From assembly GCA_964395115.1 (NCBI GenBank), contig CAYMZX010000003.1, positions 14,111-78,110 on the forward strand: a stretch of DNA of 64,000 nucleotides. Reading direction: 5' to 3'. Made by a program: the position numbers and the translations under genes. The DNA is from an uncultured Gammaproteobacteria bacterium (GTDB lineage Bacteria; Patescibacteriota; Microgenomatia; UBA8517). Below are positions 1,154 to 4,646 of this stretch, piece by piece; within the stretch, counting starts at the first letter, position 1, and each line of letters begins with the position of its first letter. Under the pieces are notes generated by a model. It worked only from the letters and a program-made list of their open reading frames with translations. It searched no databases and had not been told where the DNA came from.

Positions 1154-2203
1154 ATGGAACAACACGCAATACCACAACAAATTTCTTCTTATCAATTTCG
1201 ACTGGTCGGAGATATGACTTTAAAACAATTTTTTCAATTGGCCGGGGGGCTTTTGTTTTCTCTTCTTTTCTACGCTTGCCCCCTGCACCCGCTTATTAAA
1301 TGGCCCTTTATCGTTTTTTTTGCCGTTCTGGGAGTCGCGCTTGCCTTCCTTCCTTTTGAAGAAAGGCCTTTAGAAAAATGGATAGCCGCTTTTTTTAGAT
1401 CGGTCTATTCGCCAACTATTTTTTATTGGCAGAAGACCGTCCACCCCGCTGTTTATTTCCAAGAGGAGGCTCCTGTTCCTGCCGAAAGAATCGTAGCGCC
1501 CCGGGGCGAAAAGGCCCTAAAAGAATACTTGGGCTCAATACCCGAGTCGCCATTTTTGTCGGCGGTGGAAGCGGCGGAGAAGGCCTTTTTGTCCAAAATA
1601 ACAGAGCTTATTGGAGGTTCGCTTGTCAGACCAAAACAAATCGCAGAAACCAAATCTACTTTTCCGCCGAAACAGAAAAGCGAGCTTATAATTCCCCGCC
1701 AGGAGGCCGTCGTGATATCGCCCCCCTCAAAACCGCGGGTTGTCGTTGAAGAAAAACTTGACGAAGGCCGGGCTTCTATTTCCCCCGCGAAACTAACTGG
1801 CGTGGCTCCAGCTATCGAATCTTATGGACCAATTTCCGGAGCAGAAGCCCAGTTTGCTCCCGAAGCGGCACCTCCCCTACCACCAACAACCCCCAATATT
1901 GTTGTCGGTCAAATTTTGGATGAATCTGGAAAAATAATCGACGGAGCAATTATGGAAATAAGAGATGCTGCCGGGCGACCAGTAAGGGCCCTTAAAAGCA
2001 ATAAACTTGGTCACTTCATGATCGCAGCCCCATTGTCAAACGGAAGGTACGAAATGATTATCGAAAGGGAAGGATTCATTTTTGACCCGATCATTTTCGA
2101 GACAAATGGAGAGATAATTCCACCGATTGTTATTAAGGCCAAAGCCAGGCCTCAGCCCGTTGTTAGCGAACCGAACTATGGCGGGTCGGCCGCCCAGATA
2201 TGA
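1154..2203 (+). CDS. Membrane protein with an N-terminal two-TM hairpin (VirB3/PrgI-like topology), a Pro-rich linker and a C-terminal carboxypeptidase-regulatory-like beta-sandwich
   Basis: 349-aa ORF. Residues ~25-70 form two hydrophobic helices. The C-terminal region (VVGQILDESGKIIDGAIMEIRDAAGRPVRAL...GRYEMIIEREGF) matches the CarboxypepD_reg/PEGA-like pattern. It sits immediately upstream of the VirB4-like genes. Confidence 0.6.
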   Translation: MEQHAIPQQISSYQFRLVGDMTLKQFFQLAGGLLFSLLFYACPLHPLIKWPFIVFFAVLGVALAFLPFEERPLEKWIAAFFRSVYSPTIFYWQKTVHPAVYFQEEAPVPAERIVAPRGEKALKEYLGSIPESPFLSAVEAAEKAFLSKITELIGGSLVRPKQIAETKSTFPPKQKSELIIPRQEAVVISPPSKPRVVVEEKLDEGRASISPAKLTGVAPAIESYGPISGAEAQFAPEAAPPLPPTTPNIVVGQILDESGKIIDGAIMEIRDAAGRPVRALKSNKLGHFMIAAPLSNGRYEMIIEREGFIFDPIIFETNGEIIPPIVIKAKARPQPVVSEPNYGGSAAQI

Positions 2204-2859
2204 AAATTCCCTATCTTTCAATCCCGGATGCCCCTCTAGTCGCCACCACCCAGGCTCATTTACCCATCGCCGAAATAACCGAAGATATTGTGCTTTATAA
2301 AGACGGCGGAGCCGCTCTTGTTCTGGAATCAACCTCATTAAACTTCGGCCTGCTCTCCGAAAAAGAACAACAGGCCGTAATCGCCGCCTATGCCGCCCTT
2401 ATCAATTCGCTCTCTTTTGCCATTCAGATTGTTATTAGAACTCAAAGAAAGGACATTAATAATTATCTGGCCTTTCTAGACTCTTCGGCCCAAAAGATTA
2501 AAAACCCGAAGTTGGCGACCCTTATGCAAAGCCATCGACAATTTATTCTCGACTCCATCAAAAAGAAAAATGTTCTGGGGAAAAAATTCTATCTCGTTAT
2601 TCCTTTTAGCCCCCTTGAGTTGGGGGTTGGAAAATCCATCCGCTCAACCCTCGGGAGAGGAAAGCCCCTTCCTTTTCCAATGTCTTACGTCATCAAGAAG
2701 GCCAAAGTTGTTCTTTATCCCCGGCGCGACCATTTAATCCGCCAGGCCGGGAGGCTGGGCATCCGACTTAAACAGCTTTCCAACAACGAATTAATCAACC
2801 TTTTCTTTACAGTCTATAACCCGGAATCCCCGGCGGTTAAGAAGGATGAAATTAAATGA
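2200..2859 (+). CDS. Hypothetical 219-aa protein, possibly the separated N-terminal (CagE/TrbE/VirB-type) segment of the VirB4-like ATPase
   Basis: It overlaps the next ORF by 4 bp (ATGA). The N-terminal region (IAEITEDIVLYKDGGAALVLESTSLNFGLLSEKEQQ...) resembles VirB4 N-termini. Together with the next ORF (596 aa) it would be ~815 aa, a typical VirB4 length. Confidence 0.5.
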   Translation: MKIPYLSIPDAPLVATTQAHLPIAEITEDIVLYKDGGAALVLESTSLNFGLLSEKEQQAVIAAYAALINSLSFAIQIVIRTQRKDINNYLAFLDSSAQKIKNPKLATLMQSHRQFILDSIKKKNVLGKKFYLVIPFSPLELGVGKSIRSTLGRGKPLPFPMSYVIKKAKVVLYPRRDHLIRQAGRLGIRLKQLSNNELINLFFTVYNPESPAVKKDEIK

Positions 2860-4646
2860 CTACCCAAACATCCGGGCCTAATATCAAATCCCAGATCGGC
2901 AAGCCGCCAATAACTAACTCCAGCCTTGCCTTATATCAAAAACAGCTTGGGATTTTAGATATTATTGCCCCCAACCAAATCGAAATCGACTTTGATTTCG
3001 TAAAAATAAACGACGTCTATTTTAGAACTTTATTTGTGGCCGGATACCCGCGCTTTGTTTCGCCTGGTTGGCTGGAACCCATTATTAATTTCGATAGCTC
3101 GTTGGATATTTCATTTTTTATCTACCCCGTTGAGGGGAAAACGGTCCTTGACGACCTAAGAAGAAAAATCGCCGAAATGGAGGCGGAAATTGCGACTGAT
3201 TTAGAAAGAGGAAAAATCGTTGACCCGGCCACCCAGGCCAAACTTGAAGACGCTCGCGCCCTTCAAGAACAGCTCGTAAAAGGATCGGAAAGATTTTTCG
3301 AATTTTCGTTTTATATCACCATTCCCGCACCAACGCTTGAAGAATTAAACCAGATTACAAGACGAGTCGAGTCAACCCTGGCCTCTGTAATGATTGTCGC
3401 CAAACACGCAATTTTAGATCAGGAAAATGGGTTTCTTTCCTCTGTTCCATTCGGCATAGACAAGTTATCAATTACCAGGAATATGGACACTACCAGCCTC
3501 GCCACCACTTTTCCCTTAACAAGCGCCGAGCTTTCTGGTGACCAAGGAGTCCTTTATGGAATTAACTCCGAAAACGAATCTTTTATTATTTTTGACAGAT
3601 TCTCTTTGGAAAACGCAAACATGACCATTTTCGCTACTTCGGGGGCAGGGAAAAGTTATTTTGTCAAACTAGAATCCTTAAGAAGTTTGATGCTGGGAAC
3701 GGAGGTCATTGTTATCGATCCCGAGGCTGAATACAAAGCCCTGGCCGAGGCTGTTGGGGGAAGTTTTATCTCTTTTTCCTTCGATTCTCCGTCTAAAATC
3801 AATCCTTTTGATTTATCACAAGTTTATGAGGAGGGTGAGAATCAGTTAGGGTTAAAAATACTCTCCCTACACTCTTTGTTTAAAATCATTATGGGTCAAA
3901 TTACTCCTTCCCAGGAGGCGCTTCTTGATCGGGCGCTAGTTGCGACTTATCGAACAAAGGGAATAACGCAAGATCCCCAGACCCAGAAGAAAGAGCCTCC
4001 TTTGATGGAAGACCTTTATAAAATTCTTATCGGGATGGAAACGGCCGAGGCCCAAGACCTAGCCGCCAGAATCGAAAAATTCGTCAAGGGAAGTTTTGTG
4101 GGTATTTTCGACAAGCACACAAACATTGACATTAAAAATGCTTTTACGGTCTTTTCGGTTAAAGACTTGCAAGAGGTTTTAAGGCCAATTACCATGTTTG
4201 TCATCCTAGATTTTATCTGGACCAGGATCAAAAAAGATCTCAAAAGAAGGCTCCTGGTCGTTGATGAGGCCTGGCACATGATGCGATATCCCGACTCGGC
4301 CCAGTTCCTTTGGTCGGTGGTTAAGCGGGCTAGAAAATATTTCCTAGGGCTCACCACAGTCACCCAGGATGTCGAGGATTTTTTGGCTCAAGACATTGGC
4401 AAGGCTATTGTTACCAACTCCGCCCTTCAGCTTCTTCTGAAACAATCGCCGGCGGCGATTGATAAAGTCTCCGAAGTTTTCTATTTGTCCCAGGGAGAAA
4501 AACAACTGCTTCTCGCCGCCAACATTGGAGAGGGTATTTTTTTCGCCGGGCCCCACCACGCCCCAATAAAAATCGTCTCGTCAGAAGAAGAACATAGGCT
4601 TATTACCACCAAACCAAGCGATCGGTTGGCATCCGGAAAATCCTAG
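2856..4646 (+). CDS. VirB4/TraC/PrgJ-like type IV secretion (conjugation-type) ATPase
   Basis: Walker A TIFATSGAGKSYFV. Walker B LLVVDEAWHMM. Overall AAA_10/DUF87-like organisation. 596 aa. Confidence 0.8.
   Translation: MTTQTSGPNIKSQIGKPPITNSSLALYQKQLGILDIIAPNQIEIDFDFVKINDVYFRTLFVAGYPRFVSPGWLEPIINFDSSLDISFFIYPVEGKTVLDDLRRKIAEMEAEIATDLERGKIVDPATQAKLEDARALQEQLVKGSERFFEFSFYITIPAPTLEELNQITRRVESTLASVMIVAKHAILDQENGFLSSVPFGIDKLSITRNMDTTSLATTFPLTSAELSGDQGVLYGINSENESFIIFDRFSLENANMTIFATSGAGKSYFVKLESLRSLMLGTEVIVIDPEAEYKALAEAVGGSFISFSFDSPSKINPFDLSQVYEEGENQLGLKILSLHSLFKIIMGQITPSQEALLDRALVATYRTKGITQDPQTQKKEPPLMEDLYKILIGMETAEAQDLAARIEKFVKGSFVGIFDKHTNIDIKNAFTVFSVKDLQEVLRPITMFVILDFIWTRIKKDLKRRLLVVDEAWHMMRYPDSAQFLWSVVKRARKYFLGLTTVTQDVEDFLAQDIGKAIVTNSALQLLLKQSPAAIDKVSEVFYLSQGEKQLLLAANIGEGIFFAGPHHAPIKIVSSEEEHRLITTKPSDRLASGKS

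Follow-up and report, generated by a model that had tools for sequence, protein, structure and literature searches.

The 64,000-nucleotide stretch of DNA analysed here (the window) very likely encodes a naturally split VirB4 ATPase, in which ORF1 and ORF2 together would make up the VirB4 of a chromosomal, origin-proximal T4SS belonging to a Woesebacteria-like (Microgenomatia) Patescibacterium. The initial annotation had offered three readings of the two ORFs: a genuinely split two-subunit enzyme, a recent frameshift pseudogenization, or an unrelated upstream gene. Support for the first comes from the collinearity of the ORFs with single-chain VirB4, from the predominance of the split state among related species, from recovery of the pair in several metagenomes, from low dN/dS, and from natural fusions in relatives. 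The features of the locus are:

ORF0, 1154..2203, + strand: 349 aa, VirB3-like membrane protein of the PrgI family, carrying two TM helices at its N-terminus and a CarboxypepD_reg-like beta-sandwich
ORF1, 2200..2859, + strand: ATG start, 219 aa, TrsD-like or 'TraC-like' (PF26593) protein, free-standing and homologous to the opening ~200 residues of VirB4 (first half of the N-terminal domain)
Shine-Dalgarno-like AAGGA, 2842..2846, + strand: motif read directly from the sequence within the end of ORF1, 9 nt 5' of the ORF2 ATG, with a putative ribosome-binding function
ATGA stop/start overlap of ORF1 and ORF2, 2856..2859, + strand: putative translational coupling
ORF2, 2856..4646, + strand: ATG start, 596 aa, VirB4 core, made up of the latter half of the N-terminal domain and the P-loop ATPase domain at the C-terminus
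ORF3, 4651..6861, + strand: 736 aa, conserved membrane protein that combines a Gly/Ala-rich multi-TM block with a Cys-rich C-terminal domain bearing an HESGH motif
dnaN, 7447..8556, - strand: marker of an origin-proximal chromosomal location
dnaA, 8736..10100, - strand: marker of an origin-proximal chromosomal location

The ORF1/ORF2 junction

The overlap reported in the initial annotation is present in the sequence: the ORF2 start codon ATG occupies 2856-2858 and the ORF1 stop codon TGA 2857-2859, which places ORF2 in the -1 frame relative to ORF1, and the two products sum to 219 + 596 = 815 aa. A second ATGA, not recorded earlier, joins the ORF0 stop to the ORF1 start at 2200-2203, so that ORF0, ORF1 and ORF2 are chained. 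The 4-nt ATGA is the commonest type of overlap in prokaryotic operons. By itself, the ATGA overlap is unremarkable; the part that chance does not account for is ORF1's homology to the N-terminus of VirB4. Related loci were collected from 80 species genomes using an alignment of closer homologues, and the exact ORF1/ORF2 ATGA overlap is found in only 27 of them. The distance between the two genes is within 16 nt in 67 of the 78 split loci, while junction sequence, frame relation and spacing vary, the last from -26 to +72 nt, with start codons picked heuristically for these counts. It is the close juxtaposition of ORF1 and ORF2 that is conserved, not the ATGA itself.

Could programmed -1 ribosomal frameshifting at the ATGA produce a fused full-length VirB4 besides the two separate products? 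ORF2 does lie in the -1 frame, A and T dominate the junction (GAAATTAAATGA), and relatives have functional fused proteins. However, the canonical X XXY YYZ slippery heptamer is absent at the junction, and a conserved recoding signal would not allow the junction to vary as freely as it does among the 78 split relatives. For this lack of junction conservation we reject programmed frameshifting, which we regard as very improbable.

Identity of the two ORFs and their collinearity with VirB4

ORF2 is a VirB4 ATPase by several profiles. It matches the NCBIfam model NF045971, 'VirB4-like conjugal transfer ATPase, CD1110 family', with 386.5 bits against a cut-off of 325 (E 2.4e-115), Pfam P-loop_TraG (8.8e-31, 107 bits against 25.8), and the VirB4 C-terminal domain structure 4AG5 (1.9e-46). 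Both ATPase motifs noted in the initial annotation were located and are intact, Walker A as GAGKS at aa 263 (nt 3642-3656) and Walker B as VVDEAW at aa 468 (nt 4257-4274). Identity of ORF2 to the VirB4 of the 80 Woesebacteria/Microgenomates genomes is 72-84%, and to any plasmid VirB4 less than 40%. The ORF2 polypeptide does not carry a full-length N-terminal domain: its coverage spans only positions 179-751 of 752 in the CD1110 profile and 275-893 of 894 in VirB4_plasma, and by extrapolation it would start at ~186 of 792 in TIGR00929. The missing segment is encoded by ORF1, which matches positions 24-119 of CD1110 and 104-233 of VirB4_plasma (E 5e-8).

The proposal that the first ORF resembles the VirB4 N-terminal domain is borne out by NCBIfam profiles, profile-profile alignment and fold search alike. 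The ORF1 family profile aligns with residues 24-205 of the 797-aa VirB4 of Clostridium plasmid pCDC3875 (hhalign, probability 88.7%, E 2.5e-6, 177 columns), and ORF2 matches the gene of the same VirB4 from nt 26339, that is, from about aa 204 onward. Because ORF1 corresponds to residues 24-205 and ORF2 begins at about 204 of one and the same protein, the two ORFs are collinear with full-length VirB4 without duplication, ORF1 accounting for the N-terminal ~200 aa and ORF2 for the remainder in the CD1110, VirB4_plasma and hhalign comparisons. We also considered ORF1 as a paralogous copy of ORF2's own N-terminal region; this was ruled out because similarity between ORF1 and ORF2 is not significant (E 0.01-0.025, probability 2-4%).

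At the structural level, the 13 best PDB fold matches to the AF2 model of ORF1 (pLDDT 82) are all TrwK/VirB4 chains (probability 0.99-1.0, about 176-210 columns, TM 0.40-0.51); the position of the match within TrwK is derived from the end-to-end collinear alignment of a natural fusion rather than read directly. The model of that fusion aligns with TrwK from end to end over about 870 columns (E 4e-22). Its confidence is moderate (pLDDT 72.7, pTM 0.47), and since its global superposition on TrwK is poor (TM 0.30), it is not usable as an argument for domain packing. Single-chain VirB4 proteins, such as TrwK of R388 (PDB 7O41/8RTD) and the CD1110-family protein of pCDC3875, thus have the same domains in the same order as ORF1 plus ORF2, and share with ORF2 the Walker A/B motifs and the fold of the C-terminal domain; the window's VirB4 differs in consisting of two polypeptides, with the break about 200 residues into the chain.

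ORF1 has two traits of the TrsD-like proteins: profile, hhalign and fold searches find it homologous to the VirB4 N-terminal region, and its gene lies directly upstream of a short VirB4. Its match to the NCBIfam TrsD/TraD model NF041427 (E 8.7e-6) scores 25.7 bits, far under the curated cut-off of 200, and the PF26593 'TraC-like' assignment is a precomputed annotation only, graded 'weak'. Neither a search of the local Pfam copy, which did not return PF26593, nor a search of PDB sequences gave a meaningful match for ORF1. These two blank searches, together with the existence of VirB4 proteins of about 600 aa, for instance on Bacillota plasmids, are what would speak for ORF1 as an unrelated upstream gene next to an ORF2 that is by itself a complete short VirB4. 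Against it stand the NCBIfam matches to VirB4 N-terminal regions and TrsD, the hhalign correspondence with residues 24-205, a fold search headed exclusively by VirB4 chains, the precomputed PF26593 match, and the restriction of ORF2 to positions 179-751 of CD1110. We therefore set an unrelated upstream gene aside as most implausible, and retain ORF1 as the N-terminal portion of a divided VirB4.

Conservation of the split and fused states

The closest ORF1 homologues all come from Woesebacteria, Microgenomates or Patescibacteria, and the best 120 of 1694 are all free-standing proteins of 205-241 aa. ORF1 and ORF2 are separate genes in 78 of the 80 related species and fused in the other two, and the same pair turns up, with an identical two-gene structure, in metagenomes from three independent samples. 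Synteny of the ORF0-ORF1-ORF2 core holds in 79 of 80 loci; ORF0 lies directly 5' of ORF1 in all of these, the sole absence being due to a cut contig. With a dN/dS of 0.025-0.06 among its orthologues, ORF1 is under strong purifying selection.

These observations bear on the suggestion that a recent frameshift or a sequencing error broke a single 815-aa virB4, by pseudogenization or as an assembly artefact. The -1 frame relation and the sum of 815 aa are what such a break would leave behind, and one relative (L019) is indeed frameshifted, but inside ORF2, at aa 379. Recurrence of the structure in three separately assembled samples, the split in 78 of 80 species-level genomes with varied junctions, the low dN/dS and the uniform length of the best 120 homologues exclude it for practical purposes, and we give it next to no credence.

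Fused orthologues, which the initial annotation had proposed looking for, exist not only in the two close species but throughout a sister lineage formed by Ca. Amesbacteria and its relatives, where they occupy the same syntenic position in the gene order PrgI, fused VirB4, large protein, dnaN. One such protein is P0146, and with it about 43 of the best 120 clusters are fusions of 738-897 aa, mostly 780-880; another (P0273) is found at the same PrgI...dnaN locus, without a separate TrsD, on at least 24 contigs. The fused TrsD-VirB4 proteins of this lineage are 66% identical to ORF2 and about 48% to ORF1, but form one ORF of 780-880 aa, with a short or Gly/Pro-rich linker where the window has a stop and a start.

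Genomic setting and proposed mechanism

ORF0 matches Pfam PrgI at aa 6-85 (E 2.6e-5) with 25.1 bits, below the cut-off of 27, and CarboxypepD_reg at aa 250-308; its orthologue in a related locus (L088) has a precomputed PrgI match. ORF3 has no match in Pfam, NCBIfam or PDB sequences; about 60 of the 80 related loci have a counterpart of it 3' of VirB4, with 24-46% identity, and in the others none was detected. As regards VirB6-like and VirB2-like components, ORF3 is a multi-TM protein outside any matched family, and no pilin gene was identified in the neighbourhood. Past dnaA, housekeeping genes, yidC and jag among them, continue up to 23.7 kb. No relaxase occurs within the adjacent ~15 kb, and the window edge cuts off what lies upstream of 1154. 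The system is therefore chromosomal, near dnaA/dnaN and without an adjacent relaxase, as in the T4SS of Patescibacteria.

How might a VirB4 in two pieces work? The genes would form an operon, PrgI(VirB3-like)-TrsD-like-VirB4-ORF3, in which the two ATGA overlaps probably couple translation, such that ORF1 and ORF2 would be made together and in similar amounts. ORF1 would then bind ORF2 non-covalently and complete the VirB4 N-terminal domain, and the complex may act as a membrane-associated hexameric motor that energizes assembly and transport. In the structure of the R388 machine, the VirB4 N-terminal domain is the part that VirB3 wraps, and it is also responsible for VirB4 dimerization and for binding of the VirB8 tails (PMC9259494).

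Relation to known systems

TrsD homologues adjoin virB4 across Patescibacteria, near dnaA/dnaN (Quinonero-Coronel et al. 2025, PMC12102498), and as cited there, Wang et al. 2023 found them essential in Ca. Southlakia epibionticum; for Gracilibacteria, the TrsD-like gene reportedly lies apart from virB4 (PMC12102498). No T4SS before that of Patescibacteria had been reported as essential to its owner's survival (PMC12857230, PMC12102498). Guglielmini et al. 2014 is cited for the homology of TrsD and VirB4; TrsD is absent from its main text and may be in a figure or supplement. The window has the same genes in the same order (PrgI-like, TrsD-like, VirB4), origin-proximal by dnaN/dnaA, differs in nothing substantive from the chromosomal T4SS of Patescibacteria (CPR) in PMC12102498, and is one more instance of it. 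The split is ancient and already named, as a TrsD-like protein plus VirB4, and is a known feature; the analysis refines this modestly, by the exact collinear complementarity and by the sister clade with fused genes.

In Bacillota plasmids, the split (TrsD/TrsE) and fused states are both present. Split pairs are the TrsD/TrsE of B. cereus, Pontibacillus and C. difficile, and the ORF1 profile matches the TrsD-like protein of C. difficile with an hhalign probability of 97.9%. As in the window, TrsD/TrsE of pGO1/pSK41-type MPF_FATA systems and the pairs of a TrsD-like protein and a short VirB4 on Bacillota plasmids have a small homologue of the VirB4 N-terminus directly 5' of a VirB4 of 620-640 aa, and a PrgI-like gene before it. 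The Bacillota TrsD-like proteins are only 24-30% identical to ORF1, exceed it in length (274-345 aa) and, unlike it, possess a TM helix at the N-terminus; they are encoded on conjugative plasmids with relaxases rather than at a chromosomal housekeeping locus. A 328-aa protein upstream of the full-length VirB4 of C. botulinum is not TrsD-like, consistent with that VirB4 already containing the TrsD module.

Is ORF1 simply the missing piece of ORF2, or does this homologue of the VirB4 N-terminus act on its own as an accessory or regulatory subunit, such as an adaptor, an assembly chaperone or a competitor for VirB3/VirB8 binding? Many TrsD-like homologues in other Patescibacteria have added Q/P/S/T-rich disordered tails of 100-500 aa, which, with the non-adjacency in Gracilibacteria, hint at some autonomy of TrsD, and the TM helix of the Bacillota proteins, which ORF1 lacks, points the same way. 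An autonomous subunit is nevertheless unlikely here, since ORF1 is collinear with full-length VirB4 and has no overlap with ORF2, the segment missing from ORF2 is exactly what ORF1 supplies, and viable natural fusions with short linkers occupy the orthologous locus.

A two-chain VirB4 would mean that the motor of the Patescibacteria T4SS has halves that line up collinearly with the canonical enzyme and that occur as natural fusions in sister lineages, and it would give the TrsD family, functionless until now, a concrete proposed role. The 219-aa 'hypothetical protein' should be annotated as a VirB4 N-terminal (TrsD-like) subunit rather than a pseudogene fragment, and the co-expressed pair or a natural fusion is a practical handle for biochemistry and structural work. 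Beyond naming and this handle, the instance in the window adds nothing new.

It is conceivable, if rather doubtful, that the VirB4 N-terminal domain arose by ancient tandem duplication of one alpha/beta module and that the TrsD/VirB4 break falls exactly between the repeats. If so, this would explain repeated splitting and re-fusion, with Woesebacteria split, Amesbacteria fused and Bacillota both. The fused model runs through eleven secondary-structure elements in identical order, E E E H E H H E H E H, in residues 16-198 and again in 218-371, and the sole profile alignment of ORF1 with ORF2 (66-141 with 74-163), the non-significant one given above, is in register with this order.

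Locus organization

Is the VirB4 of this locus genuinely split between two genes, is it a frameshifted pseudogene, or is the first ORF merely an unrelated upstream gene? The initial annotation left these three readings open for two ORFs of 219 and 596 aa sharing an ATGA, and the sequence confirms the pair: the ATGA at 2856-2859 is common to the end of ORF1 and the start of ORF2, with AAGGA located 9 nt 5' of the ORF2 ATG. ORF0 and ORF1 overlap in the same manner (ATGA, 2200-2203) and the gap between the ORF2 end and the ORF3 start is 4 nt, so that ORF0-ORF3 constitute a tight co-directional four-gene block.

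Features of the locus
1154-2203, + strand: ORF0, 349 aa, PrgI/VirB3-like
2200-2859, + strand: ORF1, 219 aa, TrsD-like
2856-4646, + strand: ORF2, 596 aa, VirB4 ATPase
4651-6861, + strand: ORF3, 736 aa, membrane protein
6788-7435, + strand: small ORF between ORF3 and dnaN
7447-8556, strand opposite to ORF0-ORF3: dnaN
8736-10100, strand opposite to ORF0-ORF3: dnaA

Beyond dnaN and dnaA lie yidC, jag and further housekeeping genes. In a survey of 3,035 Patescibacteria genomes, Quinonero-Coronel et al. (2025) found VirB4 in 2,417, PrgI/VirB3 commonly and, in Microgenomatia and Paceibacteria, a T4SS cluster near dnaA/dnaN; they list the TrsD homologue as an essential gene in Ca. Southlakia epibionticum (PMC12102498). 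According to a 2025 review, the Patescibacteria T4SS is the first that is essential to its owner's survival (PMC12857230). The locus in the window is an unremarkable example of this already described system, and the split TrsD-like/VirB4 feature is likewise known from the literature.

ORF0 is unusually long for a PrgI/VirB3-like protein (349 aa versus about 100-130 aa for PrgI), and its residues 250-308 form a CarboxypepD_reg-like beta-sandwich that is presumably extracytoplasmic. The small ORF at 6788-7435 is 181 aa as called in JGI contigs and 215 aa from its first ATG, a start at which the first 74 nt would overlap the ORF3 3' end; a search for a family match to it found none.

ORF1 and ORF2 are complementary parts of VirB4

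Judged from its sequence, ORF2 is a VirB4-type ATPase: it scores 386.5 bits against NCBIfam NF045971 (curated cut-off 325), matches Pfam P-loop_TraG, AAA_10 and DUF87 and the C-terminal domain structure of VirB4 from Thermoanaerobacter (4AG5, E 1.9e-46), and has both Walker motifs intact, A at aa 263 (GAGKS) and B at aa 468 (VVDEAW). Its coverage of the NCBIfam VirB4 profiles begins only at position 179 of 752 (CD1110) and 275 of 894 (VirB4_plasma). ORF1 matches the parts ahead of these, positions 24-119 of CD1110 and 104-233 of VirB4_plasma (E 5e-8); its match to the TrsD/TraD model NF041427 (E 8.7e-6) scores far under the model cut-off. On a full-length reference, the 797-aa CD1110-family VirB4 of Clostridium botulinum pCDC3875 (L086:2392-4785), the ORF1 family profile covers residues 24-205 (hhalign probability 88.7%, E 2.5e-6, 177 columns) and ORF2 matches from nt 26339 (about residue 204) through the end. 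In the comparison that the initial annotation had proposed, profiles and reference therefore agree that the two ORFs are collinear and complementary without duplication, ORF1 being the N-terminal part and ORF2 the rest.

The fold agrees with this assignment. All 13 top-ranking PDB matches of the ORF1 AlphaFold2 model (pLDDT 82) are chains of TrwK/VirB4 from the R388 machine (probability 0.99-1.0, about 176-210 columns, TM 0.40-0.51), and together with the sequence matches they refute an unrelated upstream gene. The model of a natural fusion aligns with TrwK, the single-chain VirB4 of R388, over about 870 columns (E 4e-22), with a low global TM-score of 0.30 that is due to uncertain domain orientations in the model (pTM 0.47).

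In the model of the fused protein P0146, residues 16-198 and 218-371 have an identical order of eleven secondary-structure elements. The sole sequence alignment between ORF1 (aa 66-141) and ORF2 (aa 74-163) is not significant (E ~0.01-0.025), and it is in register with this repeated order. The two halves of the VirB4 N-terminal domain may thus descend from an ancient tandem duplication, with the split lying between the repeats.

The split state is conserved, and fused relatives exist

The same 219 + 596 aa pair was assembled, identical, from three separate JGI samples. Among 80 related species (Woesebacteria and Microgenomates, one genome each), 78 keep two separate genes; the ORF0-ORF1-ORF2 core is present at 79 loci, the exception being L048, whose truncated contig lacks ORF0, and at about 60 loci ORF3 can be detected 3' of the core. 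ORF1 has 1694 homologues (90% clusters), the best 120 of which are all free-standing (205-241 aa, 69-83% identity). The least saturated pairs of ORF1 orthologues give dN/dS values of 0.025-0.06, indicating strong purifying selection. The pair is thus neither artefact nor pseudogene, and it is the genuinely split VirB4 that is supported.

The junction itself is variable: ATGA occurs in 27 of the 80 loci, and the two genes lie within 16 nt of each other in 67 of the 78 split loci (extremes -26 and +72 nt), distances biased towards small values because the relatives' ORF2 was taken to begin at whichever in-frame start codon fell closest to the ORF1 stop. In one complete Woesebacteria chromosome (OY970314.1; L019:5690-7475) the VirB4 gene is frameshifted at about aa 379, as a genuine pseudogene or through faulty assembly, at a site that contrasts with the conserved ORF1/ORF2 boundary.

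Single fused ORFs do occur at orthologous loci. At two of the 80 loci (L047 and L061; 860 and 914 aa) the frame runs through as one, and a search with the 787-aa fusion P0146 returned about 43 fusions among the best 120 clusters (738-897 aa, mostly 780-880; 56-94% identity), Ca. Amesbacteria proteins among them. Another fusion, P0273, recurs at the orthologous locus of at least 24 contigs, where the order is PrgI, the fused gene (794 aa), a large protein and dnaN, and a separate TrsD-like gene is absent. Fused relatives beside split ones make the two states interchangeable within one class, a classic Rosetta-stone argument for the two products working as a single unit.

The R388 structure shows VirB3 wrapped around the VirB4 N-terminal domain (residues 15-400), through which the central and outside VirB4 copies dimerize and to which the VirB8 tails bind (PMC9259494). 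ORF1 is the counterpart of this domain's first half, and from that correspondence and those roles we propose a sequence in which ORF1 would dock onto ORF2, completing the N-terminal domain, and the PrgI-like ORF0 would anchor the complex in the membrane. The chained stop/start overlaps would favour co-translation and matched amounts of the putatively coupled products.

TrsD-like genes in other bacteria

In tblastn searches of plasmids, ORF1 matches the gene directly 5' of that for VirB4 on plasmids of Pontibacillus, Priestia, Geobacillus and Miltoncostaea and on many from Bacillus; a number of these matches are annotated TrsD, with TrsE next. A C. difficile element has the order PrgI, 322-aa TrsD-like protein (hhalign probability 97.9%), 640-aa ATPase. 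Unlike ORF1, the Bacillota versions possess an N-terminal TM helix. Five TrsD-like proteins of other Patescibacteria (P0204, P0226, P0169, P0129 and P0123) add to the ~205-aa domain Q/P/S/T/N-rich, apparently disordered tails of 100-500 aa, which ORF1 lacks. Several share a similar ending (…LPPIAEIT, …LPPISEIT, …PPLPEI), which may be a peptide motif or may reflect the next gene's ribosome-binding site or start.

ORF3 and VirB4 inteins

The N-terminal region of ORF3 is charged, a multi-TM block rich in Gly and Ala spans ~aa 345-440, and the C-terminal domain is rich in Cys and bears a zinc-peptidase-like HESGH (HExxH) motif. ORF3 has no match in Pfam, NCBIfam or PDB sequences, and its relatives 3' of VirB4 (~60/80 loci) are only 24-46% identical; one possibility is a VirB6-like channel joined to a hydrolase.

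Whereas ORF2 is uninterrupted, the VirB4 of 5 of the 80 related Woesebacteria (L008:5745-9320, L010, L062, L063 and L078, all outside the window) carries a LAGLIDADG intein of ~595 aa in the Walker A loop (GAGK/S...VHN/SYFVKLE), confirmed by Pfam Intein_splicing and LAGLIDADG_3 matches. The P0146 search contained more intein-bearing VirB4 clusters, of 1158-1215 aa.
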